Virus genome (UHGV): UHGV-0118085
Strand: one strand, 5' to 3'
Origin: a virus
Length of the DNA: 17,017 bases
This document shows, in pieces, positions 1-17,007 of the stretch (position 1 is the first letter of the stretch; every line of letters starts with the position of its first letter). Position numbers and translations under genes: made by a program. The notes beneath the pieces were generated by a model. It saw only the letters and a program-made list of their open reading frames with translations, was not told the DNA's origin and searched no databases.

Positions 1-44
1 GGAAGCAAATCATCTGCAATGCATTAAGCAGCAGGCAAATTGAG

Positions 45-89
45 GATAAAAAAAAACCCCACATCATGTGGGGGAAGACAGGGATGGTG
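45..89. repeat. Attachment-site direct repeat, ogr-proximal copy
   Basis: gataaaaaaaaaccccacatcatgtgggggaagacagggatggtg matches 16963..17007 at 44 of 45 positions; the single difference is a at 56 versus c at 16974. The flanks diverge immediately outside the repeat. Confidence 0.8.
48..73 (-). terminator. Intrinsic-terminator-like hairpin inside the att core
   Basis: A 7-bp stem ccccaca/tgtgggg (57..63 and 67..73) with a 3-nt loop follows a run of nine A (48..56). On the minus strand this reads as a GC-rich hairpin followed by a U tract. The same structure is present in the right copy. Confidence 0.5.
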
Positions 90-112
90 ATTTAAATATC
101 ACCATAACCGAA

Positions 113-134
113 TGAAACAAAAGGATTTGTTTCA
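113..134. repeat. Perfect 9-bp inverted repeat tgaaacaaa-agga-tttgtttca
   Basis: Read directly from the sequence, between the att core and the arm-type repeats. Function unknown; possibly a protein-binding site in the att arm. Confidence 0.4.
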
Positions 135-140
135 TGTGAT

Positions 141-158
141 GTCCACACATCGTCCACA
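141..158. promoter_or_regulatory. Two direct GTCCACA repeats 11 bp apart, candidate integrase arm-type sites
   Basis: GTCCACA occurs at 141..147 and 152..158. The same pair with the same 11-bp spacing occurs at 16863..16869 and 16874..16880. Direct repeats one helical turn apart flanking both ends is the pattern expected for tyrosine-integrase arm sites. Confidence 0.5.
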
Positions 159-161
159 TCG

Positions 162-186
162 AAAAAAAGCCCCGCATCTGCGGGGC
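162..186 (-). terminator. Rho-independent terminator immediately 3' of ogr
   Basis: Stem gccccgc/gcggggc (169..175 and 180..186) with loop atct, followed on the minus strand by a run of seven T (162..168). It begins 5 nt after the ogr stop codon. Confidence 0.7.
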
Positions 187-191
187 CTTCA

Positions 192-440
192 TTATATCGC
201 TAAATTTAGTTGATCGCGTCCATAGTGCGAGGCGGGAAAGACGCCTGCAGGAACAAAGTCAGGCGCTAATTTATCGCGCCGCTCACGCTTGGTGACAATT
301 TTTTCAACGCTATTAAGCGTCGTGAATGACAAGCCGCATTCCATGTTCTGGCACTGATGATACTGACGAATCGTGACTTCACTGAGAGGCTTACTGGTGC
401 GGGTGCGGGCCGTAGCGCCACAATGTGGACATTTGAACAT
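192..440 (-). CDS. ogr: Ogr/Delta-type zinc-finger late-gene transcription activator
   Basis: 82-aa ORF with the Cys4 spacing C-x2-C-x22-C-x4-C (CPHC ... CQNMEC) and the YHQCQN motif typical of P2 Ogr. It sits directly downstream of D, as in P2. Confidence 0.85.
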   Translation of the reverse strand: MFKCPHCGATARTRTSKPLSEVTIRQYHQCQNMECGLSFTTLNSVEKIVTKRERRDKLAPDFVPAGVFPASHYGRDQLNLAI

Positions 441-478
441 AATGGTGACTCCCCTGGGGAGTTGAACTCATCGCTATT

Positions 479-1612
479 CTATTCAGTTTCTGCAATCCAG
501 TCAGATATTTTTGCTTCAAAGTTAAGCTGTGTAGTAAATCCATTGCTATCAACGTCATGCTGTACCTTGCTGATTATCCAGTCCTGGGCGTCAATATCTG
601 CCTTAAAACCGGTCACGGTCGAATGCATTTCCGGGTACAACTCCGCACGCCCGCGCGCCAAGGTGATCGAAAACTCCGCCGCGCCGCGCTGTAACTGCTG
701 CCACTTTGCCGCCGCTGCGCGCCTAGCGGCTTCTTCGTTCTGGAAGGTTTTACGCATAATAAAAACGTTACCTTCAGCGCCTTCAATGTAGTCACCTTCC
801 CTGCTGCTGCTCTTATCCTTTTTTTTCGTTGTGGCACGGCGACGAACGCTAACCTTTTTCTTTTTCCCGTAGTTTAGATCAAGCCAGTACGCGCGGACGC
901 CGGTATAAGCGTCACGATCAGCAACCCGGAAGCGGTGCCGGTCTCCACTGCTGCGCGTGATGGCAATCGACGGAATAGCCTTCCCTGATGCAGTGAAACC
1001 ACCACCCGGCACGATAAACAGCAGACTTCCATTTTTTACCGTGGCGATGGCCCCTAACATTTCCGCCATTCTGGTCAGAAATGACATATCGCTTTCCTGA
1101 GTCTGATCGGCGTGATCAATTTCCACATCCATCAACAGATCGCTGATTTGCGGCGTCAGGTCATACCGTTTTGCGATAGCAGACACAATCCGCTCCACAG
1201 TCACATCATGCCAGGAGACTTCACGCTTTACGTTAAACTCTTCTCTGAAATCTGCACTTCTGGCAGTCACGGTGATACGGTCGGGCGGCCCGTCGTGCGC
1301 CACTTCATCAACCGTGTAGATGCCCTTATAAACCAGCGCTTCACCCATCCACCCCAGCCAGAAAGACAACTCAGCGCCACGCGGCGGAAGAGCAACGCTT
1401 CCATCAGTGTCATCCAGCTCTAATGTCAGCTGATCGGCGTCAAAACCCCGGTTGTCCGTCAGGCTGATGGATATCACGCGATCTGATAATTCTGTTAACA
1501 CCTTCCCGCCTTGCCGGACGCTGAATGCTGGTATTTTTAACGCCTCCGTCAGGATGTCATCGACACCGCCAGCCGCGCCCGAAATCATACTGCTGATCAC
1601 TGAAACACTCAT
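479..1612 (-). CDS. D: Phage tail protein D (gpD / late control D family)
   Basis: Long ORF resembling the P2 gpD family and immediately upstream of ogr. The track ORF runs to 1726, but the ATG at 1612..1610 is preceded by GGAGG and gives a P2-D-like length of about 377 aa, so I prefer that start. Confidence 0.8.
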   Translation of the reverse strand: MSVSVISSMISGAAGGVDDILTEALKIPAFSVRQGGKVLTELSDRVISISLTDNRGFDADQLTLELDDTDGSVALPPRGAELSFWLGWMGEALVYKGIYTVDEVAHDGPPDRITVTARSADFREEFNVKREVSWHDVTVERIVSAIAKRYDLTPQISDLLMDVEIDHADQTQESDMSFLTRMAEMLGAIATVKNGSLLFIVPGGGFTASGKAIPSIAITRSSGDRHRFRVADRDAYTGVRAYWLDLNYGKKKKVSVRRRATTKKKDKSSSREGDYIEGAEGNVFIMRKTFQNEEAARRAAAAKWQQLQRGAAEFSITLARGRAELYPEMHSTVTGFKADIDAQDWIISKVQHDVDSNGFTTQLNFEAKISDWIAETE

Positions 1613-1672
1613 ATACCCTCCCGTTTTGCTGAATAATTCCACGCGGGCGCGCGTGGGAGAATTCGTTTTAGT

Positions 1673-1690
1673 TGTCAGAGAGATAGCACA
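1673..1690 (+). promoter_or_regulatory. TGT-N12-ACA dyad, the Ogr-dependent P2 late-promoter activator-site pattern, upstream of FI
   Basis: TGT at 1673..1675, a 12-nt spacer cagagagatagc, then ACA at 1688..1690. The dyad centre is about 70 to 85 bp upstream of the FI start, the right region for an activator site near -55. Confidence 0.5.
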
Positions 1691-1753
1691 ACCAGAAAGG
1701 CGTGAAGCCGTTACGTCAATCAGCAATCATGGTGGCGAACTCAACAAAACGTA

Positions 1754-2956
1754 ATGGTGACAAACATGTCTGAGACACGTTTTCACGGTGCTCGCACCAA
1801 AGAAGAAACCGACATCACGAGGGTAATTAACGACATTGACTCCAGCGTCATTGGCGTGATTGTCATCGCTGATGACGCAGACGAAGACGCTTTCCCACTT
1901 AACATCCCAACGCTTATCACGCGGCCTCAGTCGATGCTCGGCAAGGCAGGGAAAACAGGGACGTTGTACAAAACACTGAAAGCTATTTCAGACCAGGCAA
2001 GCGCGAAAATCATTGTTGTTCGTGTTGCCACGGCTAAACCGCCGGAGGAAGGGAAAACGGCGGAAACACAGTCGCAGTTGATTATTGGTGGCTCTGATGC
2101 TGACGGTAACTACACCGGCATGTATGCGCTACTGACCGCCGAACAAAAAACGGGATATCGCCCGCGCGTCCTGGCGGTGCCGGAATACGATACCGAAGAA
2201 GTAACATCACAGCTTTGCGTGATCGCCAAACAGCTTCGCGCCTTTGTTTATGCTGGCTGTAACGGCTGCAACACACTGGCAGAGGCCCGGCAATATCGTG
2301 AAACCTTCGCATCACGTGAACTCATGCTGATCTGGCCTAACTACATTGCCTATAACCAGGTGTCCGGGGCAAATGAAGAGTTTCCCGCCCCAGCCTATGC
2401 GGTAGGGCTGCGCGCGTTTATTGACAACCAATACGGCTGGCATCGTTCTCTGTCTAACATCGCCGTCAGTAACGTGCTTGGCATGTCGAAGGACGTTTTC
2501 TGGGCGCTCCAGGCTGAAGACAGCGACGCCCAGACGCTGAACAACGATGAAATCACCACCATCATCAAGCGTAACGGCTTCCGCTTCTGGGGCAACCGCA
2601 CCACTGACACCAATGAATTTACTTTTGAGGTGTACACCCGTACGGCGCAAATCCTGGCGGACACCATCGCAGAGGCACAGTTTGAAACCGTTGACGGGCC
2701 ACTTACCCCAACCAACGTGAAAGACGTGGTGAGTGCAATTAACAAGAAACTCAGCGCACTTGTGACCGCTGGCAAGCTGCTTGGCGCGGAGGCGTGGTTT
2801 GACATTGTGGACAACCCGACCGCAAACCTGATTCAGGGAAAAGTGGCGATCCGTTACAAGTATACGCCAGTACCGCCGATGGAAGATTTAACGCTGATCC
2901 AGACGTTCACCGATGAATATTTTGAAGGCGCGTTTTCGTCTCTGGGGAGTAACTAA
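1754..2956 (+). CDS. FI: Contractile tail sheath protein (P2 FI family)
   Basis: 400-aa ORF with tail-sheath hallmarks (DADEDAFPLN near the N-terminus, GFRFWGNRT, LRAF, C-terminal YTPVPP). Its stop is immediately followed by the start of the tube-like ORF, as for FI-FII in P2. The true start may be the ATG at 1766 (MSETRF...). Confidence 0.85.
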   Translation: MVTNMSETRFHGARTKEETDITRVINDIDSSVIGVIVIADDADEDAFPLNIPTLITRPQSMLGKAGKTGTLYKTLKAISDQASAKIIVVRVATAKPPEEGKTAETQSQLIIGGSDADGNYTGMYALLTAEQKTGYRPRVLAVPEYDTEEVTSQLCVIAKQLRAFVYAGCNGCNTLAEARQYRETFASRELMLIWPNYIAYNQVSGANEEFPAPAYAVGLRAFIDNQYGWHRSLSNIAVSNVLGMSKDVFWALQAEDSDAQTLNNDEITTIIKRNGFRFWGNRTTDTNEFTFEVYTRTAQILADTIAEAQFETVDGPLTPTNVKDVVSAINKKLSALVTAGKLLGAEAWFDIVDNPTANLIQGKVAIRYKYTPVPPMEDLTLIQTFTDEYFEGAFSSLGSN

Positions 2957-4039
2957 ATGGCGATTCCAGCAAAATTGCGGCTGTTCACCTGCTTCGTGAA
3001 CAGCGTAAACAATATCGGCAAAGTGACATCTGTGACGCTGCCAAAACTGACCCGGAAAACGGAAGACTACCAGGGCGGCGGCATGATTGGTTCCGTTGCC
3101 GTCGATCTCGGACTGGATATCTGGCGATTCTGGGAACCGATCAAAGCCTTCTTTGCGGGCTTCTTTGCCGGTGTGATGCAGGCTCTTACACCGTTCCGGG
3201 ATGCCTTTGCCGGGCTGGCCCCCGTCTTTGATGTGATCTCGAATGCCGTTTCTGAGTTATGGCAGTGGTTCAGCAACCTGCTTTCACCAATGACGACCAG
3301 CAAAGAGATGCTTGATAAATGCGCAAGCGCTGGGGAGACATTCGGCAAAGTGTTTGGCCTGGCAATTCAGGGGTTAATGTTGCCTCTGACCGGGCTAGCC
3401 AAAATGGTTGGATGGATACTTGAAAAGCTGGGACTGATTCCATCCGGGATTGAAACAGCAAAAGCAAAAGCTGAGAAGGTACAGAAGGAACTAACACCGG
3501 CAGGATTGACTATGCTGCAGGACAAAGTTGGCGCGCTCACTGGTGATGTAAAAGCAGTAACCGCACCACCTATCGCACCGCCATCACCGGTGATTGCCGC
3601 AGATACAGGAACACAACGACGCTTACAGAAAATTGCCGACAACACCGGCGGGATGCTGGATGAAACCAAAAAACGGATCGGCCCTGGCGATATAGTGTTT
3701 AAAAACCTGCCCCGCGCATTAGCCGTCCACGGCACATGGCAGGAAGCACAATCAACCCAAGGCGCTAACCTGACCCAACTGAGCGGGCGACCGGTTATCG
3801 CAGCGGCATCAGCCCCGATTAAACCAGCGGCTGAAATACAGGCTATTGGCGGGCAATCCAGGAAACAAATCAGCAGATCGGCGCAAAACACCACGCCTGA
3901 TGAAATGCATATTCACATTCATATGCACGGCAATTTCAGCAACGACGCCCGCGACATTGCGCGCATGACCGCCGACGCAGTACAGGCAGAATTTAATAAG
4001 CGCTTCCGCTCACGTAGCAGCTTCAGTGACAATGAATAG
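2957..4039 (+). CDS. Chimeric ORF: tail-tube (FII-like) N-terminus fused in frame to a tape-measure (gpT-like) C-terminal portion; probably a deletion remnant
   Basis: The first ~54 residues (MAIPAKLRLF...VTLPKLTRK...VDLGLD) resemble the tail-tube N-terminus. The remainder is an Ala/Gly-rich, partly hydrophobic sequence typical of a tape-measure C-terminus. 360 aa is far too long for a tube protein (about 170 aa) and far too short for a tape measure (about 800 aa). Confidence 0.6.
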   Translation: MAIPAKLRLFTCFVNSVNNIGKVTSVTLPKLTRKTEDYQGGGMIGSVAVDLGLDIWRFWEPIKAFFAGFFAGVMQALTPFRDAFAGLAPVFDVISNAVSELWQWFSNLLSPMTTSKEMLDKCASAGETFGKVFGLAIQGLMLPLTGLAKMVGWILEKLGLIPSGIETAKAKAEKVQKELTPAGLTMLQDKVGALTGDVKAVTAPPIAPPSPVIAADTGTQRRLQKIADNTGGMLDETKKRIGPGDIVFKNLPRALAVHGTWQEAQSTQGANLTQLSGRPVIAAASAPIKPAAEIQAIGGQSRKQISRSAQNTTPDEMHIHIHMHGNFSNDARDIARMTADAVQAEFNKRFRSRSSFSDNE

Positions 4040-4051
4040 GAGAGCAAAACA

Positions 4052-5749
4052 ATGATGATGGTTTACGGAATGTTCGTCTTTGAGTTAAAAACCGTTCCCC
4101 ACCAACAGTTGCAGCAATCAAAGACCTGGAGGCATGTGAAGAACGAACGCATAAACCGATCGGCAAAATGGCAATACATTGGCGCGGGTGACGATCAAAT
4201 CACCCTATGCCAACTCACCATGAAGCCGACAAAGACGGGCGGCGATCTGAAGGAAATTGACGCGCTCACGCGCCAGGTGAAGAAACTGGCAGAAGGACAA
4301 CCGGCGCAGCCATTCAAGAAAGCGCGCGCGAGCAAAAAGAAAAACCACTTCACCGAAGCGCAGATCGCCGCGCTGCGGGAAAAAATTCAGGACTCCTTGG
4401 CCTGGCATCAGCAAGGATGGTTTGAACAGCGCCAGCAGCGCAACCGCATGATCCTGAAAAGTCGCCAGATTGGCGCTACCTGGTACTTTGCCCGTGAAGC
4501 GCTTTTACAGGCGCTGCGGGATGACGTTAAGCACGGGTATCAGCGCAACCAGATTTTTCTGTCAGCGTCACGTCGCCAGGCGCACCAGTTCCGGGGCTTC
4601 ATCCAGAAGGTTGCAGAAGAAGTCGACGTAGAGCTAAAAGGCGGTGACAAAATTTTGTTATCTAACGGGGCCGAATTGCATTTTCTCGGCACGTCTGCTG
4701 CTACCGCGCAGAGCTACACCGGCAACCTGTTTTTCGACGAATTTTTCTGGGTAGGTAACTTTGCCAACCTCCGCAAGGTGGCTGGCGCAATGGCAACCCT
4801 GAAAGGACTGACGCGCACTTATTTTTCAACGCCATCGAGCGAAAGCCATGAAGCCTACCCCTTCTGGACGGGTAAGCGCTGGAATGAGAAGCGGGCAAAA
4901 TCCAGCCGAGTAGAGTTCGACACAAGCTGGAAGACGCTCAACAGCGGCCTGTTGTGCCCGGATAAAACCTGGCGGCAGATTGTCACCCTGAAGGACGTGA
5001 TCGACCACGGCTGGGAGTTCACCGACCTGGAAGAAATCCAGGACGAAAATACCCCGGACGAATACACCAACCTGTACATGTGTGAGTTCGTCAAAGAAGG
5101 TGAATCCGTTTTCTCACTTAATCAGCTACTGACGTGCGGCGCGGACGGCTACGACGACTGGCAGGACTGGAAACCCTACGCCCCCCGCCCGCTTGGCGAT
5201 CGTGAAGTCTGGATAGGCTACGACGCCAACGGCGGCAGTGGCAACGGTGACAGCGGCGCTGTTTCCGTGGTTACCCCTCCCCTGGTCAGTGGCGGCAAGT
5301 TCCGCACGATAGAGACGCGCCAGCTACGCGGGATGGAGTTTGAAGAACAGGCCAAAGTGATCGAAGACCTGACCATTAAATACAACGTCCGGCACATCGC
5401 AATTGACGGTACCGGCATTGGTGAAGCGGTCTGGCAACTGGTCAAGAAATTCTTCCCGGCGGCGGTCTGTTTCATCATGTCGCTGTCATCAAAGCGCACT
5501 CTGGTACTCAAAATGCAGCAGGTGATCCGCGCGGGCCGCTGGGAGTATGACCGTAGTGAACAGGCGTTAGTGTCAGCATTCAACGCCGTCAGGAAAATCA
5601 CCACCGCCGGTGGACAAATTACCTATGACACCGATCGCGCGCGCGGCGTCAGTCATGGCGACTTAGCCTGGGCAAATATGCTGGCAATCATCAACGAGCC
5701 ACTTGGACGCGAGAACGGCAGCGGCGGCGGTTCCGTAAGAGAGTTTTAA
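4052..5749 (+). CDS. Chimeric ORF: gpU-like tail-protein N-terminus (about 65 aa) fused in frame to a nearly complete large terminase (gpP-like, ATPase plus nuclease)
   Basis: The N-terminus MMMVYGMFVFELKTVPHQQLQ...WRH...ITL...TGG matches the gpU family pattern. The rest carries terminase large-subunit features (KSRQIGATWYFAREAL, QIFLSAS, GNLFFDEFFWV, YFSTPSS...YPFWTG, C-terminal IAIDGTGIG). An RBS (GGAG) precedes the ATG, and the stop overlaps the Q start (TAATG). Confidence 0.65.
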   Translation: MMMVYGMFVFELKTVPHQQLQQSKTWRHVKNERINRSAKWQYIGAGDDQITLCQLTMKPTKTGGDLKEIDALTRQVKKLAEGQPAQPFKKARASKKKNHFTEAQIAALREKIQDSLAWHQQGWFEQRQQRNRMILKSRQIGATWYFAREALLQALRDDVKHGYQRNQIFLSASRRQAHQFRGFIQKVAEEVDVELKGGDKILLSNGAELHFLGTSAATAQSYTGNLFFDEFFWVGNFANLRKVAGAMATLKGLTRTYFSTPSSESHEAYPFWTGKRWNEKRAKSSRVEFDTSWKTLNSGLLCPDKTWRQIVTLKDVIDHGWEFTDLEEIQDENTPDEYTNLYMCEFVKEGESVFSLNQLLTCGADGYDDWQDWKPYAPRPLGDREVWIGYDANGGSGNGDSGAVSVVTPPLVSGGKFRTIETRQLRGMEFEEQAKVIEDLTIKYNVRHIAIDGTGIGEAVWQLVKKFFPAAVCFIMSLSSKRTLVLKMQQVIRAGRWEYDRSEQALVSAFNAVRKITTAGGQITYDTDRARGVSHGDLAWANMLAIINEPLGRENGSGGGSVREF

Positions 5750-6810
5750 TGAACACAACAACACACGAAAGCGGCCTGACTATGCTTACTGACGGTACAC
5801 AGCAACATGATATTGGTGAAGCACTGAAGCGCGATCCAGCCCTTAGCGCTTTCACCTTTGATGGGCCATACCAGGTCGCTGACGCTTACGACCTGCTCGA
5901 CAATATGTATTGCGCCGATAACGGCAGATATTACGAAACACCGGTGGACTGGTACGGGCTTGCGCGCTCATTCGGCAAGGCGTCCTGGCACCAGTCAGCG
6001 CTGTACTTCAAGCGCAACGCGCTGGCGGGTTGCTTCATCCCACACCCGCTACTGTCTCGCCAGACGTTCTCCGCCCTGGCGCTTGACTGGTTTGTGTTTG
6101 GCAACTTCTACCTGGAAGAACGAAATAACCGACTAGGCGGGCTGCTACCGCTCCGCCATTCCCCGGCGAAATACACCCGGCGTGGCATTGACCTGGATAC
6201 ATACTGGTTTATCAGGCAGTGGAAAGACGAATCAGCTTTTAAAACCGGCTCTGTCTGCCATGTGTTGAACCCTGACATTCATCAGGAGATCTACGGGATG
6301 CCGGAGTACATGGGCGCGCTATTGTCAGCCAGCCTGTCACACTCGGCGGACATGTTCCGCAAGATGTATTACGAAAACGGATCTCATGCCGGATGCATTC
6401 TGTATATCGGCACATCACAGGTGGACGACGCTGGCGTAAAAGTCATACAGCAAACACTGGCGGGAGCCAGGAACAAAGGGGCATTTAAGAACGTAGTGAT
6501 CCACGCGCCAGGCGGCGGTAAAGACGGGGTACAACTGATGCCCTTCAGCCAGATATCAGCAAAGGATGAGTTTTTAAATATTAAATCAGCGACACGCGAT
6601 GACATTCTGGCGGCTCACCGCGTACCGCCGCAACTGATGGGGGCCATGCCGGACGGCAACGGCTCATTCGGTGATGTGGAGAAGGCCGCGCGCGTGTTTG
6701 CCATCAACGAACTAATGCCAGCAATGGAAGCGCTGAAGCACGTCAACGACTGGCTGGGGGAAGAAGTGATCCGCTTTAAACCTTACGCCCTGCTGGAAAC
6801 CATGAAATAA
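5749..6810 (+). CDS. Q: Phage portal protein (P2 gpQ family)
   Basis: 353-aa ORF of P2 Q size, translationally coupled to the terminase ORF, and followed by a GC-rich cos-like spacer as in P2. Confidence 0.85.
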   Translation: MNTTTHESGLTMLTDGTQQHDIGEALKRDPALSAFTFDGPYQVADAYDLLDNMYCADNGRYYETPVDWYGLARSFGKASWHQSALYFKRNALAGCFIPHPLLSRQTFSALALDWFVFGNFYLEERNNRLGGLLPLRHSPAKYTRRGIDLDTYWFIRQWKDESAFKTGSVCHVLNPDIHQEIYGMPEYMGALLSASLSHSADMFRKMYYENGSHAGCILYIGTSQVDDAGVKVIQQTLAGARNKGAFKNVVIHAPGGGKDGVQLMPFSQISAKDEFLNIKSATRDDILAAHRVPPQLMGAMPDGNGSFGDVEKAARVFAINELMPAMEALKHVNDWLGEEVIRFKPYALLETMK

Positions 6811-6984
6811 CCAACCCGCCGCCATCCCGGCGGCGCTCTCCGCATCACATCAATACACGGCACGCCAGCGCCATTCTAAGCGCCCCATAATCTAAACACG
6901 CCATTACCCGCACACAACACACAGAACGCAGCAGCGCGCCAGAATTGCGCCAATTTCCCTATATTTGAGGTATACCCCTTCCCA

Positions 6985-7030
6985 CCCCGCCGCGCGGGCT
7001 TTCCCCCCGTCACCTGCGCGCGGCAAACAC
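6985..7030. other. Putative cos (cohesive-end / packaging) region
   Basis: A GC-rich palindromic stretch containing gctttcccc, which resembles the reverse complement of the P2 cos end as I recall it. It lies about 190 bp past the portal stop, where cos is expected in this orientation. The match is partial. Confidence 0.3.
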
Positions 7031-7152
7031 GCGTGTTTTCGTGCATTGGCAGAACCACATCCAGCAACCATAGACCCTGCCATTATCGTCTTAAAACTCG
7101 ACTGATTTAGTTGTGCATTTTTGTGCACTTTCTTGCATGTCATTACACGTAT

Positions 7153-9924
7153 TTAATCATCTAGCAACGGATCTTGTGCCTTACTGGAATTAACTTGCTC
7201 CAAATGCTTAATACAATCTTCACTTGAAATAAAATAGACCTTAGGTTTTTTCCTTAGCTCATATGTCAAAAATACTGTCACTTCCATTTTTACATACGTT
7301 TTCAGATTAGTTTCATTTATATCTAATCCTCTTGAAGTCAACAAACTATCAGATGGAGAAGTGAAAGATGCTTTTAATATATCGTCTCCCTCAAGAGAAA
7401 AACAACAAACATCATCAAGATGAATATAATAAAAACCATCCTTATTAAATTTTACATCATTTTGTACTCTATATCTCATTCCTCTGTAGAATCTGACGTT
7501 ATGATCAAAATCATTCTCTATTGCGCTTATAGTTATAAACTTCAAACCTTCAGGGAGTTGGTTAAGATTCTTAATAATAACAACATCCATATCATGAAGA
7601 TCACTAATCAAATGAGAAGTGATGAGTTTGAAAACATTTGCCGCATATAAAGATGGAGATTGGGAATATATTTCTCCATTAATGGGCTTAATAATCTGTC
7701 GCTTCGTAATTAGATATTCAAAAACAAACTTGTCACTAATATTTTCACAACTACACTCTAAAGTAGCAAACTCACGAAATGTTTTTATGAAATCATTTTT
7801 TAATCCATCTTCATATAGCTTCATGAGTTCTTCATCATAAGGAGTATTGATCACATCATTGACTTGAATATCAAGAATCTTAGAGTTTATTTCTTCAAAT
7901 CCAGAAAGTAGATTATGCTTACGCTCATCAAAACTATTAAGCTCATCATTATGAGCTTCTAATTCGAGTAAATCCATAACTTCTCTAAAAAAATCTGATT
8001 GATATATAGACATGACATCATCTATAAAATGAGATGAAAGATTATTTACCTTTACAAGGTTCTCTAAATCATCAATATATATTAGACTTAAACCATTATT
8101 GTACGAACGACCTTTGAATAAAATCAATGCTAAAGCAAAAGCCATATAATGTTGTGATCTTATAGAAATAGCACCTGAGCCAGTTGCATCCCTTATTTCA
8201 AACTCATCTATATCATCTAAAAAAACAGATTTTAACGAAAAAAGAATATCATAAACTTCTGATATGAAGTAAATCTCCGTTAAGTAATGAGGATTCAACC
8301 ATTGGCTCAGCAAGTTTGCCAGATCTAATATTTCCTCATTCTTATTTTTTAGTTCACATAATCGAATGCCATCATTTTTTCCTAGTAGGTGCTCCAACCG
8401 CATTCCAATACAAGATATCACTATTTTATTCGCATCAATCAGCAAGGATTGTCTAGTATTCAATTCAGATGATGAAATGCCAATATAAATGTTATTATTC
8501 CCAGTAAGAAATGTAGTGTTTATTTTAAAAGCATCATAATGTCTATTGACAAGGTTTTTAATACTCGACTTAAGATAAATCTCAAGAAACTTATCACTTT
8601 CAGAATACATAACTCTTTCTTCTGTGAAACTCCTAGACTCAATCAAAAAACCATAATATGAAGATGGATCATAAATTATTCTCGGAAGAGAAAGCATAGA
8701 ACTAAAGACGATTAGAGCTTTTTCAATATCGGTATATAGAAGAAGCCATAGCAACTTATTATAAAACGCGAATAGTATTGTTTGTGGTGTATTTTTTGAG
8801 GATGGGGATTCATATATGAATCGTTCCAAACTTAAAAACACTCCTGCACTTTGAGATTTTGAAATTATTAAATATATTACTTCCACACAAAAATCAAGTT
8901 GACTACTTAAACTCCCCTGCAAGGTGTTTAATGTATTCCTTACAACCATCAACTCTATTTCATCATAAAAATAGAAATTTTCGCTTTCATTAAGATAATT
9001 GAATGATTTACTAATGAGCGTTTTAATTTTATTAAGAGACTCATGATTTTGATTCAAATTAATGCCTTCATCAGAAAAAATAATGGCATCTCTATCAATC
9101 ATAGGCTTGTGAAATGTAGGTGAGATATATAATACAACTTTTGAAGTGCCGAAAATTTTTGTTAGTTCAGCATTCAATTTATTTAGATTATTCTTATTAA
9201 GGCCAACTATTACTTTCTTATCCGTAGAATATGTATTTTTAATTTTTACTCCATTTAGAGGCATGAACTCCATTTCATATTTAATAACTGAATTCTGTTG
9301 GTTTTTTATAAAATTACGAAATTCAGCAAGTAGATGCTTGCTATTATTATTACTATCTAAAACAAATGAACTAACTTCCGTTACTTTATTCAATAAAATT
9401 GCATCAATCAACTCTTTTTTCTCTGTTATATAATATAAACTCCTGAACATGGATATGTATCGGAATATAAAAAAAACAGAGCATGATACTGACAAGGCAT
9501 ATTGAATAACCCCCCCACCGATTACCAAGAAAAAGATTCCCACAAATAATCCGCAAATAGCATTAAGGCTGAATGAATAAAATTTATATTCTCTCAATAC
9601 CAATTGCCTTGTTACATTAACAAAATACTTATTTGATGCCTCTGTAACCTGTTGAACAAACATTCCCATAAATGCAATTGATAATGCAGCGATTGTTCCG
9701 TGGATTGATAATATAGTTCCCCAAGAGCTAGGAATCCAATTTAACTCTGCTTTATTAACGTATAACGGAGAAATAAAGAGCCAGCGATAGTCAGAATCTC
9801 CTCCTGCCCCTACAAAAAATAAAACCGAACCTAAAAGCAAAATTAAACCCATCTTAATAAAAGACTCAATTGCTTTTTTACCTGTGAATTCAGCCACCTG
9901 CTTTGATATTTTACCACTATCCAT
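7153..9924 (-). CDS. Large AT-rich cargo protein of unknown function with about four N-terminal transmembrane helices; candidate anti-phage defence or exclusion protein
   Basis: Uninterrupted 923-codon ORF. Sampled 60-nt lines inside it give 19/60 and 14/60 G+C, against 37/60 in a sampled line of gene A. Hydrophobic segments fall at residues about 25-41, 66-90 and 118-165 (nt about 9430..9852). No Walker A, HUH, DPPY or other motif recognised in the soluble part. It occupies the P2 tin/old position between A and cos/Q. Confidence 0.8.
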   Translation of the reverse strand: MDSGKISKQVAEFTGKKAIESFIKMGLILLLGSVLFFVGAGGDSDYRWLFISPLYVNKAELNWIPSSWGTILSIHGTIAALSIAFMGMFVQQVTEASNKYFVNVTRQLVLREYKFYSFSLNAICGLFVGIFFLVIGGGVIQYALSVSCSVFFIFRYISMFRSLYYITEKKELIDAILLNKVTEVSSFVLDSNNNSKHLLAEFRNFIKNQQNSVIKYEMEFMPLNGVKIKNTYSTDKKVIVGLNKNNLNKLNAELTKIFGTSKVVLYISPTFHKPMIDRDAIIFSDEGINLNQNHESLNKIKTLISKSFNYLNESENFYFYDEIELMVVRNTLNTLQGSLSSQLDFCVEVIYLIISKSQSAGVFLSLERFIYESPSSKNTPQTILFAFYNKLLWLLLYTDIEKALIVFSSMLSLPRIIYDPSSYYGFLIESRSFTEERVMYSESDKFLEIYLKSSIKNLVNRHYDAFKINTTFLTGNNNIYIGISSSELNTRQSLLIDANKIVISCIGMRLEHLLGKNDGIRLCELKNKNEEILDLANLLSQWLNPHYLTEIYFISEVYDILFSLKSVFLDDIDEFEIRDATGSGAISIRSQHYMAFALALILFKGRSYNNGLSLIYIDDLENLVKVNNLSSHFIDDVMSIYQSDFFREVMDLLELEAHNDELNSFDERKHNLLSGFEEINSKILDIQVNDVINTPYDEELMKLYEDGLKNDFIKTFREFATLECSCENISDKFVFEYLITKRQIIKPINGEIYSQSPSLYAANVFKLITSHLISDLHDMDVVIIKNLNQLPEGLKFITISAIENDFDHNVRFYRGMRYRVQNDVKFNKDGFYYIHLDDVCCFSLEGDDILKASFTSPSDSLLTSRGLDINETNLKTYVKMEVTVFLTYELRKKPKVYFISSEDCIKHLEQVNSSKAQDPLLDD

Positions 9925-10104: not shown

Positions 10105-12594
10105 TCATCTTTCAGGGGCAATCCTTTTCAACATTCTAGTGTAATATCCAATTGGATCATGCCTAATGTTACCACAGTCAATATTATGTCTTATTTGCAT
10201 ACGTTGCCACAACGCCCTGATTTTAGAGTCCATGCTGGAGTCTGATCGACGTCGCACTTCTCCATTGTTGTTGGCATAAACAACACTTTCATCAATACGC
10301 AAATGTTCGCCGCGTAACAACAACTTTATTTGGCCTGTACTCAGCTTCATGCCGATAGATCTGGCATAGTCATCCATTACAGCTATGCGTGCTTCAGGTA
10401 TTGGCACAGTGACATGGTCAGCAGGCATACATTTTTCCTGTTGGCGCAACTCATGAGCTACCTTCAGATAGATCTCTGCTCTAGCCTGCTCAATTTCACC
10501 ACAATCAAATGCCGTAATAGCATTAGCAAGCGCTTCAAATTCATCAGCAGGTGATTTTTGCCGTTTCGATTTGTAGTTTCTTAAACCTTCATTAAGACGC
10601 ATTTTCTGTTCGCGGGTCATTTGACCAATTTCATACTGTTCGGGTTCGTCCGGTTGTGAATTTTCACATACTGATTTTGTGTGTTTTTTGTACTCAGTAC
10701 AGTTATTGACACGAGTCCAAGAGGGCGCGGGCGCGCCCTTAAGGTCAAAACCTCGACCAGCGTCGTCGTCTGCTTTTGGCTTCATTTTGACAATACGATA
10801 AGAATGGAGACGGGTTTCAACCGGAGGAATAGTCGATGCTGGCATGACTACGCCTTTAATGACTCTCTGAAACTCGCCGTAACTGCTCGGTTCATCCCGG
10901 TACTGATACCATGCGCGCAACACAAGCCTATTCCGTGCCACGAACGGGCCACCCTGCAAGGTAATGTAGTCCTGCCAGTTCCCCGCATGTGCGGCGCGAT
11001 GTAACTCACCGAAAACCGGACTGATACGATCTGCCATTTCCTGATTCTTCAGGCGGCGCAACTCGCGCCAGACAGACACCGGCGCACCACCCAAAAACTG
11101 AAACTGACGAATGCCCCAGCATGAAGCCCAGGCGGTAGCGTGTTTTGCTGTTTCCTTCAGTGGACGTCCGCTTTCGTCGTCGCTTTCACCATCCAGCGCG
11201 TAGCCATCAATATTTTTAGATATGTACTTAACAACATAGCCAGTAGCACTCCCCAAAGCCGGATCTATTGGCTTAAGCTCAAAGCGCGGTTGCTTGCCAG
11301 TCTTGCCGGTTAGCTCGTCTGCATCCTCACGTGTGGCGTAGTCTTCCATCACTTCCAACAACTCGCCGGTATGTTCCGGGGCAGTGAACAGAAGGCCATG
11401 CCAATGCGGAGTAGCATCATGGTGAGATTCAGCAACGCGAAGGCCAAAAACAGGAATCTCACGGCGCGCAAGCTCCGCGCGGATCAGCTGCCAGACGTGA
11501 TTAAGGTAGTTCTGTGTTTTGCGTGGGCTTGCTCCGTTCCATTTATGATTACGATGCCCGAATACTGTAAAAGCATGATATTTAGACGGTGCGGTCAACG
11601 TGAAGAAACTACCGGCAAAACCGCTTTCTGTTGCCACTTTCTCAAAGCCACCAATGCGCGTCATCAACTCAACGCGGCGCTTTTCAGGGTTAGAAATACT
11701 TTTATCAATCTGCTCTATCAGCGAAATGCGCTCGCCAGTTACCTGATCTTCAAGTTCAAGACGGCTCATAATTTCGCGACTACGCTTACGGCGGGAATCC
11801 CACTGTGTAACGTGGTGTTTGCTGCAATACGGTGAAACATCGCGGCGCACATCACCATAAGCAATGTGCAAATGCTCACGCCAGCGGCGGGCGTACTTGC
11901 GCAGAAGGCGTGACCAAAAGCGATCGTGCGTGGTTTTTTGTATTGCCGCCGCCGCTTCATCAAGCGCCATCCGGCGCTTCTTCGCCCAAGGTGCCACCAA
12001 CCTGAAATACGCAATTAGTCTAGAGCCTTCACGCACCATGCGTTTGCCGTACTCAGCATCACTAAACATGCTCGCGCCTTCACTCACTTCAGCCAAAACG
12101 GCATTGGCATAAATGGCAATGTCCTGTGCCAACAAATCAATATCTTCATCGGTACTATCAGCCAGATTATTGAAGCGGTGCGCTAGCTCACGCAGATTTT
12201 CAAACGTGTGAAATAGTGGGTTTAGTTCAGAGAAAATGATCCAATCATTGTCTTCTGGTACCGCGTATTGATTCGTGACGTTACGGACGTGTGGAAGCTC
12301 GCGCTTAACGATATCGCGTAGCTTCAGTTTTGCGATATGACGTCCTTTATCCTCGTGAACGGTATTTATGTAAAAAGCAATGCGACGGCGAATGAAAGAA
12401 GGTAACGGCTTAAGGGTATCTTCTACCCATGCGAAAAACTCCTGCTCTTGACCCAATTCATATAGGTCAACAGCGGGAGTCTTATCGACGGAAATGGCCT
12501 GTTTGGGCTCATTCCAGGCGTAAGCATACCGGGCTGGCTCAACCGAGCCTCCCGGCATGGAGGTCATGCTATGGGTGCGGCGAACTGAAGTCAT
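10105..12594 (-). CDS. A: Rolling-circle replication initiator endonuclease (P2 gpA family)
   Basis: HUH motif PHWHGLLF (nt 11398..11406) and the twin-tyrosine motif YVVKYISKN (nt 11224..11238) with the two Tyr three residues apart, as in P2 A and phiX174 A. The track start at 12597 is a TTG; the ATG at 12594 is preceded by AAGG, so I prefer it. Confidence 0.9.
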   Translation of the reverse strand: MTSVRRTHSMTSMPGGSVEPARYAYAWNEPKQAISVDKTPAVDLYELGQEQEFFAWVEDTLKPLPSFIRRRIAFYINTVHEDKGRHIAKLKLRDIVKRELPHVRNVTNQYAVPEDNDWIIFSELNPLFHTFENLRELAHRFNNLADSTDEDIDLLAQDIAIYANAVLAEVSEGASMFSDAEYGKRMVREGSRLIAYFRLVAPWAKKRRMALDEAAAAIQKTTHDRFWSRLLRKYARRWREHLHIAYGDVRRDVSPYCSKHHVTQWDSRRKRSREIMSRLELEDQVTGERISLIEQIDKSISNPEKRRVELMTRIGGFEKVATESGFAGSFFTLTAPSKYHAFTVFGHRNHKWNGASPRKTQNYLNHVWQLIRAELARREIPVFGLRVAESHHDATPHWHGLLFTAPEHTGELLEVMEDYATREDADELTGKTGKQPRFELKPIDPALGSATGYVVKYISKNIDGYALDGESDDESGRPLKETAKHATAWASCWGIRQFQFLGGAPVSVWRELRRLKNQEMADRISPVFGELHRAAHAGNWQDYITLQGGPFVARNRLVLRAWYQYRDEPSSYGEFQRVIKGVVMPASTIPPVETRLHSYRIVKMKPKADDDAGRGFDLKGAPAPSWTRVNNCTEYKKHTKSVCENSQPDEPEQYEIGQMTREQKMRLNEGLRNYKSKRQKSPADEFEALANAITAFDCGEIEQARAEIYLKVAHELRQQEKCMPADHVTVPIPEARIAVMDDYARSIGMKLSTGQIKLLLRGEHLRIDESVVYANNNGEVRRRSDSSMDSKIRALWQRMQIRHNIDCGNIRHDPIGYYTRMLKRIAPER

Positions 12595-12603
12595 CAATCC
12601 GCC

Positions 12604-12777
12604 TTAGATGGAAACAGTGTCGCCGGGCTGTATTGCTCTGGCGTCACGTTCTGAATAGGTGATCAGATCTGTATTGCTGTAACCCCCCTCACCCAGAACC
12701 TCAACACGAGTTATCCAGTAATTACGGCGCGGGAGCACATCCAGCACCTTTGTCACAACGACCTCAACGGGATTCAT
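12604..12777 (-). CDS. Hypothetical small protein (57 aa), translationally coupled to the methyltransferase
   Basis: Hand-translated as MNPVEVVVTKVLDVLPRRNYWITRVEVLGEGGYSNTDLITYSERDARAIQPGDTVSI. Its ATG (12777..12775) overlaps the methyltransferase stop codon (12779..12777) by one nucleotide (TGATG), with AGGAGG upstream. It is below the ORF-track length cutoff. Confidence 0.45.
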   Translation of the reverse strand: MNPVEVVVTKVLDVLPRRNYWITRVEVLGEGGYSNTDLITYSERDARAIQPGDTVSI

Positions 12778-13760
12778 CAGAACACCTCCTGATCATCAAA
12801 AGCACCAGAGGCAACCATTTCTGAATAGGTCGCATCAGCCATCACAGCACCGCAATCAGGACAACCGCCGCCAGTACGCCCACAACAACCACAAACGCGT
12901 AGAAAGCCGATCACCTCGCCAGCCAAGTTGCGAGATTTGGCCCCTACAGATCGGCGGATTTCGAATGAATTAAGGGTGAACGGGTAGTAAATTTTGCGGG
13001 TTTCCGGGGTATCGCTACCGGAAAAAACAGACAGGCATCCTTCGTTGTTATGAGCGGTAATCAATGACTCAACCAGGTCACGGTGATCATCGACAGTGAA
13101 GGGTTTACCGTACGCGGTAAAATCAGCCGTTTTACTCGCTGGCAGGTAAGGCGGATCACAGTAAATTACTGTGCGCTCAAATATGCGACTAGCAACAGGG
13201 ATGGTGTAACGGAAATCAGCGCAAAGAAACTGAGCACCTTTCTCATATGCTCGTTTTGCAAAGTGCTGGATCTCTGCAACAGGGAAAATTGGCTTGCGGC
13301 GACGACCAAATGGAACGTTAAATTCATTCTTCCCATTCACTCGGTATAAACCGTTATAGCAATGACGGTTTAGATAAAGGAATAATGCTGCAAACTTTAC
13401 AAGTTCACTCTGATAATAAACCTTTCCATCAGAAGTTTTTTTATTATGCTGGGGGAAATCACGATTAAAATCATTAAATTCATTGCGGCATTTATAATAT
13501 GCCTCTTCATTATTACCGCCATCAAATAGAGTAGCAGCGACATCTAGCAACGATTTAGTATTGTTCTTCAATATTGAATAGAAGTTCATAAGCGCTGCGT
13601 TGCTATCACACAGAATATAGGTTTTATAGTCAGTGTTCAGAAAGACGCTACCACTACCTACAAAAGGCTCAACGAGACATTCACCCTTTGGCAAAGCCTC
13701 CAGTACATGAGGCATCGCGCGAGACTTGCCGCCCGCCCAGATCAGAGGGGAGTTAACCAT
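12777..13760 (-). CDS. Dam-type N6-adenine DNA methyltransferase with a Cys-rich C-terminal tail
   Basis: N-terminal SPLIWAGGK...EPFVGSGSV (AdoMet-binding) and catalytic DPPY (nt 13146..13157). I start it at the ATG at 13760 (MVNSP...), preceded by AAGGAG, rather than the track start at 13832. The C-terminus carries CGCCGRTGGGCPDCG (nt about 12852..12893). Confidence 0.85.
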   Translation of the reverse strand: MVNSPLIWAGGKSRAMPHVLEALPKGECLVEPFVGSGSVFLNTDYKTYILCDSNAALMNFYSILKNNTKSLLDVAATLFDGGNNEEAYYKCRNEFNDFNRDFPQHNKKTSDGKVYYQSELVKFAALFLYLNRHCYNGLYRVNGKNEFNVPFGRRRKPIFPVAEIQHFAKRAYEKGAQFLCADFRYTIPVASRIFERTVIYCDPPYLPASKTADFTAYGKPFTVDDHRDLVESLITAHNNEGCLSVFSGSDTPETRKIYYPFTLNSFEIRRSVGAKSRNLAGEVIGFLRVCGCCGRTGGGCPDCGAVMADATYSEMVASGAFDDQEVF

Positions 13761-13920
13761 TTTTTTGCTCCTTGATTTCTGCGGCCTTTTCTCTGTTGTA
13801 GATCCAGTCTTCCAGGCTGCGATAAATTTCATTGGTGGACAGCTTTTCTTTTTTCAGTAAGGTTAATTTGATACGTAACAACCCAAGCAGGTGCGCGCGT
13901 TCATTTATTTGAATTGTCAT
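13753..13920 (-). CDS. Hypothetical small protein (55 aa) overlapping the methyltransferase start
   Basis: Hand-translated as MTIQINERAHLLGLLRIKLTLLKKEKLSTNEIYRSLEDWIYNREKAAEIKEQKNG. GGAGG lies upstream of its ATG, and its 3' end overlaps the methyltransferase ATG by 8 nt. Confidence 0.45.
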   Translation of the reverse strand: MTIQINERAHLLGLLRIKLTLLKKEKLSTNEIYRSLEDWIYNREKAAEIKEQKNG

Positions 13921-15862: not shown

Positions 15863-16843
15863 ATGACTATCAAAAGACTCGATGATGGGCGTTATGAAGT
15901 GGATATCAGACCGCGCGGGCGTGAAGGACGTCGCATCCGCCGAAAATTTGAGAGAAAGGCTGAAGCTATTGCCTTTGAGCGCTACACATTAGCGAACGCT
16001 AACCAGAAGGAATGGGCGGGCCAGAGAACAGATCGCAGATCTCTATCTGAATTACTGGATGCCTGGTGGAAGTATCACGGTCAAAACCATGAACACGGTG
16101 AGAAGGAATTTAACCACCTCACGAAGACGATCGGCGGCATCGGTGACATACCCGTTAGCCGCGTGAGCAAACGGCTCCTGATGGACTACCGTTCTATGCG
16201 ACTTCGTGACGGTATCAAGGCATCAACAATTAACCGTGATATGTACCGTTTTTCAGGCATGTTCACCAAGTTGATTCAGTTGGAAGAGTTTTCCGGCACA
16301 CATCCAGTGCATGGACTACCGCCACTGGCAGAAGAAAACCCAGAAATGACATTTCTGGCAAAGGAAGAGATCAGCAGCTTACTAAATGCCTTAACCGGCG
16401 ATGCAAGATTGATTGCCCTTCTGGGCGTCAGTACCGGTGCGCGATGGTCTGAGTTGGCAACGTTAAAGCCTTCTCAGATCGTCAATTGCCGCGTGACTTT
16501 CCTGAAGACCAAAAACGGGAAAAAGCGCACTGTTCCAATTTCTGCTGAACTAGAAAAACTGATCAAGAGGGAGGCAAGCGCGAAACTGTTTAAAGTGGAC
16601 TATGAAAAATTTTGTCTGATCCTGAAGGCGGTAAAACCAGATATACCCCCGAACCAGGCAACACATATTCTGCGTCATACCTTCGCAAGTCATTTTATGA
16701 TGAATGGGGGTAACATTATCGCGCTACAGCAGATATTAGGACATGCCAGCATCCAGCAAACGATGGTTTACGCGCATCTGTCGCCAGACTATCTGCAAAA
16801 TGCTGTCTCACTAAATCCCCTTGCCGGTGGCGTATCGCTTTAA
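15863..16843 (+). CDS. int: Tyrosine integrase (P2 Int family)
   Basis: 326-aa ORF with the catalytic signature HILRHTFASH ... MVYAHL (H-x-x-R and the nucleophilic Tyr). It lies downstream of C on the same strand and next to the right att repeat, as in P2. Confidence 0.9.
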   Translation: MTIKRLDDGRYEVDIRPRGREGRRIRRKFERKAEAIAFERYTLANANQKEWAGQRTDRRSLSELLDAWWKYHGQNHEHGEKEFNHLTKTIGGIGDIPVSRVSKRLLMDYRSMRLRDGIKASTINRDMYRFSGMFTKLIQLEEFSGTHPVHGLPPLAEENPEMTFLAKEEISSLLNALTGDARLIALLGVSTGARWSELATLKPSQIVNCRVTFLKTKNGKKRTVPISAELEKLIKREASAKLFKVDYEKFCLILKAVKPDIPPNQATHILRHTFASHFMMNGGNIIALQQILGHASIQQTMVYAHLSPDYLQNAVSLNPLAGGVSL

Positions 16844-16962: not shown

Positions 16963-17007
16963 GATAAAAAAAACCCCCACATCATGTGGGGGAAGACAGG
17001 GATGGTG
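16963..17007. repeat. Attachment-site direct repeat, int-proximal copy
   Basis: Matches 45..89 at 44 of 45 positions and includes the same A-run plus ccccaca/tgtgggg hairpin. Confidence 0.8.

Follow-up and report, generated by a model that had tools for sequence, protein, structure and literature searches.

In P2, late promoters use a TGT-N12-ACA sequence together with the activator Ogr, and gene D lies within an Ogr-dependent operon (PMC3931495). D is the last gene of this FI operon, on the same strand as the other genes and overlapping U. The record of a P2-type Peduovirus gives the order FI-FII-E-E'-T-U-D-ogr on one strand, with U at 29022-29501 and D at 29501-30664, and U and D are likewise co-directional in SopEPhi. 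Here, we analyzed a 17,017-nucleotide stretch of viral DNA (UHGV-0118085; the window) that is almost exactly one decayed, defective 16.9-kb P2-like (Peduoviridae) prophage remnant. The window shares with the PF operon of P2 its genes, an activator of the Ogr/Delta type, and, upstream of FI, a TGT-N12-ACA site. However, D is separate from the operon and divergent from it, lying on the opposite strand upstream of FI instead of co-directionally and straight after U. A sequence-only reading of this DNA had placed D and ogr on the minus strand and FI, the chimera that follows it, and a gpU-like N-terminus on the plus strand, and had taken the P2 order to be a single-strand operon. These placements agreed with our coordinates, the order given for P2 matched the P2-type record, and the FI-to-U block is indeed opposite to that of P2. 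The same reading explained the arrangement by an inversion of the U-to-FI segment within this prophage, followed by deletions. The deletions are real and made both chimeric genes of the window, whereas the inversion does not stand, as the relatives share the layout. The divergence of D and FI is almost certainly native, an old and fixed trait of the clade to which the prophage belongs.

Among the members of this clade are Xuanwuvirus (P88), Novemvirus (phiT5282H), Serratia phage KSP20, and many Klebsiella, Enterobacter, and Escherichia prophages. Intact relatives were obtained by megablast against complete Escherichia coli genomes, and 80 IMG/VR loci were fetched with the D protein; FI, D, and ogr were placed by tblastn in a total of 86 loci. 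FI was on the opposite strand to D in every one of the 86, at a constant spacing of ~200 bp between the ends of the tblastn matches (the true intergenic distance in relatives is ~150 bp). Divergent D and FI were also found in Escherichia phage 520873, which brings the count to 87/87 relatives. Isolated phages with this layout include phiT5282H (Enterobacter, Novemvirus) and P88 (Escherichia, Xuanwuvirus), and the record of Serratia phage KSP20 shows a gpD-like orf2 on the complement, divergent from a gpFI-like orf3. Across the ~150-bp gap, the late-gene layout of P88, phiT5282H, KSP20, and the ES1-type prophages was identical to that of the window; their D and FI were 73 to 99% and 69 to 100% identical, respectively, and their intergenic motifs could be aligned. 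The window differs in having lost the stretches from FII to T and from U to P. The intact ES1 prophage, which is 92% identical to the window over the shared parts, has the order ogr and D (minus), FI, FII, E, E', T, and U (plus), cargo, fiber, baseplate, lysis, and head genes (minus), and P and Q (plus), and the intact prophage JX21CE33 is arranged in the same way. The window, with D-ogr divergent from FI across a gap of ~150 bp, conforms to this Xuanwuvirus/Novemvirus type. The D proteins of the P2-type record and of SopEPhi were only ~50% identical to that of the window. Identity to D was bimodal in the phage collection, with 46 records at 60 to 80% and the rest below 60%, and all inspected records of the 60 to 80% band carried the divergent layout. 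As this layout occurs in intact relatives and in viable isolated phages, it is an old trait of the clade, and no inversion is needed in the window prophage.

Altered copies of the locus were also encountered. In the Klebsiella pneumoniae "plasmid" CP052639.1 (22546-25891), the sheath gene is split on two strands, with its N-terminal part beside D-ogr and its C-terminal part, on the opposite strand at a distance of 2 kb, ahead of FII. The [FI-5' D ogr] segment seems to have been truly inverted here or else misassembled, which is an event of the sort suspected in the sequence-only reading, though in a different genome. IMGVR_UViG_2603880148_000003 (374-2139), with D 98% and ogr 96% identical and FI cut after residue 65, is an independent decay of the same phage type.

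Comparison with ES1 by BLAST showed the window to be collinear with the intact prophage, on the same strand, in three blocks: window positions 1-3119, 3118-4208, and 4206-7137 correspond to positions 15001-18125, 21039-22138, and 34126-37057 of the ES1 locus L001. The decay of the prophage is explained by two illegitimate deletions relative to the intact relative, one of 2.9 kb (FII-T) and one of 12 kb (U-P). The first junction (3118/3119) joins L001 position 18125 to 21039 with the loss of 2,913 bp, at a TA common to both parents, and leads from FII codon 54 into T. The resulting FII/T chimera (360 amino acids; 2957-4039, plus strand) consists of the first 54 FII (tube) codons in frame with the 3' third of T (tape measure); its Phage_tube match covers residues 4-54 only, and the remainder aligns to the tape-measure gene. 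The second junction (4206-4208) joins L001 position 22138 to 34126 with the loss of ~11,987 bp, at a TAT common to both parents, and leads from U codon ~52 into P. Its product, the U/P chimera (565 amino acids; 4052-5749, plus strand), joins ~52 U codons in frame to P, the terminase large subunit, without its N-terminus, and matches GpU at residues 6-75 and then Terminase_6N and Terminase_6C in Pfam. The complete morphogenetic set (capsid genes O/N/M/L, lysis genes, baseplate genes V/W/J/I, and fiber genes H/G) was not found in the window, and the missing morphogenetic genes all map to the 12-kb ES1 stretch that is absent from it (L001 22139-34125). As the larger deletion took all capsid, lysis, baseplate, and fiber genes, the prophage is defective. 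Both junctions are in frame, for which the chance expectation is ~1 in 9, and the two in-frame joins are probably due to chance. As a result of the deletions, the terminase-portal pair is now downstream of the FI promoter.

Had the U-to-FI segment been inverted recently in the window prophage, with breakpoints between D and U and at about 4200-4300 and with the deletions coming afterwards, this would fit a block that is inverted relative to P2 in a prophage clearly rearranged by deletions. However, intact relatives natively have D divergent from FI, an outcome that the sequence-only reading itself had named as refuting, and all relatives, intact prophages and isolated phages included, show the same orientation and spacing. 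The window is moreover collinear with ES1, and position 4206, within the interval proposed for the far breakpoint, is the U-to-P deletion junction, at which the two genes are joined in direct orientation. The sequence-only reading had also proposed a search for short inverted repeats at the breakpoints; only chance-level short pairs were found between 1613-1670 and 4200-4300. We therefore regard such an inversion as extremely unlikely. Just as little credence can be given to the FI-U block being a switchable, invertase-driven segment of the Mu G or P1 C type, present here in one of its two states. Intact relatives do carry a DNA invertase gene or fragment between U and the tail-fiber genes, at the far end of the block, but it adjoins duplicated tail-fiber/assembly genes, its usual substrate. 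P2-type phages carry the invertase too, with the opposite orientation of the block fixed. The hallmarks of Gin/Cin/Hin-type invertible segments were all missing: no inverted repeats bracket the block, the window has no invertase gene, and a single orientation was seen in 86/86 loci.

The joining of the plus-strand block to D by misassembly, another possibility raised from the sequence, has nothing in its favor beyond the odd look of the locus compared with P2. At least 23 contigs, drawn from NCBI isolate assemblies, ENA metagenomes, and Logan runs, carried the exact 360-amino-acid chimera, and its neighbors were identical in each case. Four of these contigs were 100% identical to the window over 11 to 14 kb, and two NCBI isolate assemblies were among the sources of 100% identical sequence. 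The 153-bp intergenic region and both 41-nucleotide junction sequences were exact wherever a contig reached them. The U/P junction had no exact match among species-representative genomes. As the identical sequence, gap and junctions included, recurs over 14 kb in independent isolate and metagenome assemblies, and the layout is also present in finished genomes, a chimeric assembly is excluded for all practical purposes.

The D-FI intergenic region (1613-1765, 153 bp) fills exactly the gap between two intact genes. D (479-1612, minus strand) encodes a tail/baseplate hub protein of 377 amino acids (Pfam PF05954, Phage_GPD) that is 99% identical to that of the ES1 prophage, and FI (1766-2956, plus strand) encodes a tail sheath of 396 amino acids with three sheath domains (Pfam PF22671, PF04984, and PF17482) that shows 92 to 100% identity to relatives. 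The window and the 86 loci were aligned over the region upstream of FI, which yielded 72 distinct sequences whose columns were profiled. The D start codon (1610-1612) was invariant in all of them. The central element is an Ogr-type dyad, GTTGT-N12-ACAAC (1671-1692, centered at 1681.5), which contains the TGT-N12-ACA at 1673-1690 already noted in the sequence-only reading and has a single exact match in the window. Its left part, GTTGTC (1671-1676), was invariant, and the right half read A-(C/G)-A (1688-1690) in 72/72 sequences. On the D side lies a predicted extended -10 element, TG-n-AATTAT (1633-1641, minus strand), in which the TG (1641, 1640) and the A and T at hexamer positions 2 (1637) and 6 (1633) were invariant in all 72. 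On the FI side, a predicted -10 element, AATCAT (1725-1730, plus strand), had A1726, A1729, and T1730 invariant in 72/72. GYGTGA at ~1700-1705 and GAACTCA (1737-1743) were invariant or nearly so.

With the usual 7-nucleotide spacing from the -10 elements, transcription of D would start at ~1626 and that of FI at ~1737-1738, within GAACTCA. Computed from the conserved -10 elements, the dyad center is separated from the predicted D start by 55.5 bp and from the predicted FI start by 55.5 to 56.5 bp. In 71/72 sequences, the counterpart of window positions 1633-1745 was an ungapped 113 nucleotides, despite heavy substitution of most intervening columns, and indels were confined to the two leaders. 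The D and FI leaders (1615-1632 and 1741-1758; ACCCTCCCGTTTTGCTGA and TCAACAAAACGTAATGGT, respectively) are 78% reverse-complementary, which adds to the rough mirror symmetry around the dyad.

D, which is split from the FI operon and divergent from it, needs a promoter of its own. A TGT-N12-ACA dyad upstream of a late operon is typical of Ogr/Delta-dependent promoters, the extended form of the dyad is conserved here, and an intact ogr gene is adjacent to D. In work by Christie and Calendar, TGT-N12-ACA reportedly lies at about -55 in Ogr-dependent late promoters. On balance, but by a narrow margin over an even chance, these sequence features favor 1613-1765 acting as a bidirectional late promoter with a shared dyad (PD leftward, PF rightward). 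One Ogr-type dyad ~55 bp from two back-to-back core promoters would then serve both D and the FI operon, and one bound activator could recruit RNA polymerase in either direction, as has been proposed for the divergent P and O promoters.

The P/O region of P2-like phages has back-to-back late promoters around a single dyad, as predicted for D/FI. In phage Smp131, a single dyad, read on both strands, was assigned to PP' and PO' (PMC3931495); there is thus precedent for two divergent late promoters sharing one activator site. A scan of ES1, JX21CE33, and Klebsiella CP052639.1 found the symmetric dyad at two places only, the D/FI and O/P gaps, and an exact pattern search in ES1 again confined it to these gaps. 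The ES1 O/P gap reads AGTTGTCAGAGA...CACAACC, which differs little from the D/FI dyad, and the two ES1 dyads, AGTTGTCAGAGAGATAGCACAACC and AGTTGTCAGAGACGGCCCACAACC, are nearly the same. In the O/P gap of ES1, -10-like elements are also spaced from the dyad as in D/FI; its P side has a GC-rich spacer, CCCACGCGCGCGGG, resembling the D side, and its O-side -10 element, CATCATGG, resembles the FI-side AATCATGG. The two regions differ in the genes that they drive and in that the promoters of the GC-spacer type and of the ATCATGG type are on swapped sides of the dyad, relative to the orientation of the dyad itself. The O/P region itself was deleted from the window. A GC-rich, partly palindromic tract between dyad and -10 element recurred at three promoters: the D promoter (CACGCGGGCGCGCGTG, window 1640-1655), the ES1 P promoter (the spacer given above, L001 33900-33915), and a P2-type P promoter (TCGCGGGGCGCGA, locus L087, ~11825-11840). 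No GTTGT-N12-A(C/G)A dyad was found upstream of V in ES1, where a PV-like promoter would lie (L001 27740-27950); the minus-strand late genes of ES1 from O to the fibers may form one long operon, or PV may have a degenerate site.

Several points weigh against a shared activator site. Bare TGT-N12-ACA was not in excess of chance in the window (3 found, 4.2 expected), and the right half-site is AGA, not ACA, in most relatives, so that the predicted binding symmetry is imperfect. The distances of ~55 bp depend on the usual 7-nucleotide spacing and hence on predicted starts. A generic sigma-70 scan called neither proposed promoter, and its two hits were both inside the D coding sequence, although such misses are expected for activator-dependent promoters without a -35 element; the scan thus lends the model no support. 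D might also be independent of Ogr, expressed from its extended -10 promoter. In that case, the native layout would hold two independent promoters, with FI activated by Ogr from the dyad and D expressed without an activator, and the fixed spacing would reflect something else. The canonical TG-n extended -10 on the D side, with its invariant key bases, agrees with this possibility, as extended -10 promoters can work without a -35 element or an activator. However, the distance from the D -10 element to the dyad was exact in 71/72 diverged sequences, while the leader tolerates indels, and both this distance and a comparable GC-rich spacer were seen again on the P side of the O/P region. Furthermore, D is a late structural gene and belongs to an Ogr-dependent operon in P2 (PMC3931495). 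Independent promoters are therefore a rather doubtful explanation, though one to be taken seriously, and the bidirectional promoter is preferred.

On the D side of the dyad lies the 7-bp-stem hairpin ccacgcg-ggcg-cgcgtgg (1639-1656), which the sequence-only reading had also described correctly and which extends to 9 pairs at 1637-1658. A functional role in termination or attenuation, or as a palindrome bound by a protein, might be suspected, as a terminator scan flagged 1637-1658, followed on the plus strand by a T-rich tail (1 site, 0.3 expected), and the hairpin extends to an imperfect 15-nucleotide palindrome. However, there is no upstream plus-strand gene to terminate, and the stem is not conserved as in an intrinsic terminator. 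Its right arm varied freely and without compensation (CGCGTGG, CGCGAGG, CGCGATG, GGGAGAG, and others), and all 7 pairs were present in only 4/72 distinct sequences, the mode being 3/7. The left arm is constrained because it shares the invariant TG with the D extended -10 element. What was conserved is a GC-rich tract of alternating pyrimidines and purines, CAYGYGNGYG, in the D promoter spacer. Rfam gave no match, either on the whole window or in a permissive search of 1500-1900, and the fold energy of the whole intergenic region was unremarkable (z = -1.48). A function is thus improbable, and we regard the hairpin as a lineage-specific by-product of the GC-rich D-promoter spacer, neither a functional element nor a recombination scar. 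Taken together, a native divergent layout, two deletions, a likely bidirectional late promoter, and a by-product hairpin are very probably the best explanation of the locus.

The remainder of the window is that of a typical, if reduced, P2-like prophage. It is bounded by a 45-bp attachment (att) core, at 45-89 and again at 16963-17007, as a direct repeat with 98% identity. The hallmark genes ogr, D, FI, FII, T, U, P, Q, A, cox, C, and int were all represented, with the tube and GpU matches partial in Pfam; cox and helix-turn-helix gene calls were present in contigs identical to the window. The intact ogr (192-440, minus strand) encodes the Ogr/Delta zinc-finger late activator (Pfam PF04606, Ogr_Delta, E = 4.5e-19). 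Downstream of the U/P chimera, the portal gene Q (5749-6810, plus strand; Pfam PF04860) is collinear with the ES1 locus. It is followed by a 923-amino-acid open reading frame (7153-9924, minus strand), the replication gene A (10105-12597, minus strand; Pfam GPA), a dam-type methylase gene (12777-13832, minus strand), and the integrase gene (15863-16843, plus strand; Pfam). The 923-amino-acid product, with predicted N-terminal hydrophobic segments, had no matches in Pfam or PADLOC and was unchanged in all contigs carrying the remnant; its gene is located between Q and A, a variable cargo/defense gene site in P2-like phages.

The flanks of identical contigs show E. coli-type synteny and place the remnant between fieF and cpxP, with its own int abutting cpxP. 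In contig k141_171365 (ENA ERZ27266050), int is found beside ogr, and an excised circle or mobile satellite was considered; this was rejected, as that int comes from a second prophage. A different P2-like prophage, with its own cox, a 106-amino-acid C, and int, directly adjoins the ogr end of the remnant there, and the arrangement is a tandem occupancy of the fieF-cpxP att site.

The P2-type and divergent maps can be related to each other. The P2-type order is G, hotspot/invertase, [PF FI...U], D, ogr, and that of the window clade is fiber genes, hotspot/invertase, [U...FI PF], D, ogr. In a plausible scenario, [PF-FI...U] was inverted once, long ago. The PF dyad would thereby have come to lie beside the 5' end of D, which would then have needed only to evolve a -10 element at the right distance. 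Such an inversion would account for the use of the same dyad by D despite its separation from the operon. We consider it an even chance that a single Ogr dyad drives both D and the FI operon in a design that may stem from this ancestral inversion.

The divergent layout is not discussed in the P88 paper, in a 2026 survey of P2-like viruses, or in a 2026 paper on P2/P4 defense hotspots. It is already visible in deposited, annotated genomes with an ICTV classification and does not represent a new kind of system. Divergent D and FI are standard in the Peduoviridae branch of P88, phiT5282H, and KSP20, and annotation should not treat a P2-like prophage as rearranged or misassembled on account of this divergence. 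The real lesions of the window prophage are its two microhomology deletions, and the nonviable 16.9-kb remnant that they left is found unchanged in several E. coli-type assemblies. The analysis also provides, as a by-product, a testable model of a second bidirectional Ogr-dependent promoter with strictly conserved motif spacing. If this model is true, late genes in the clade would be expressed from O/P and D/FI as two bidirectional promoters, and not from four separate ones as in P2.

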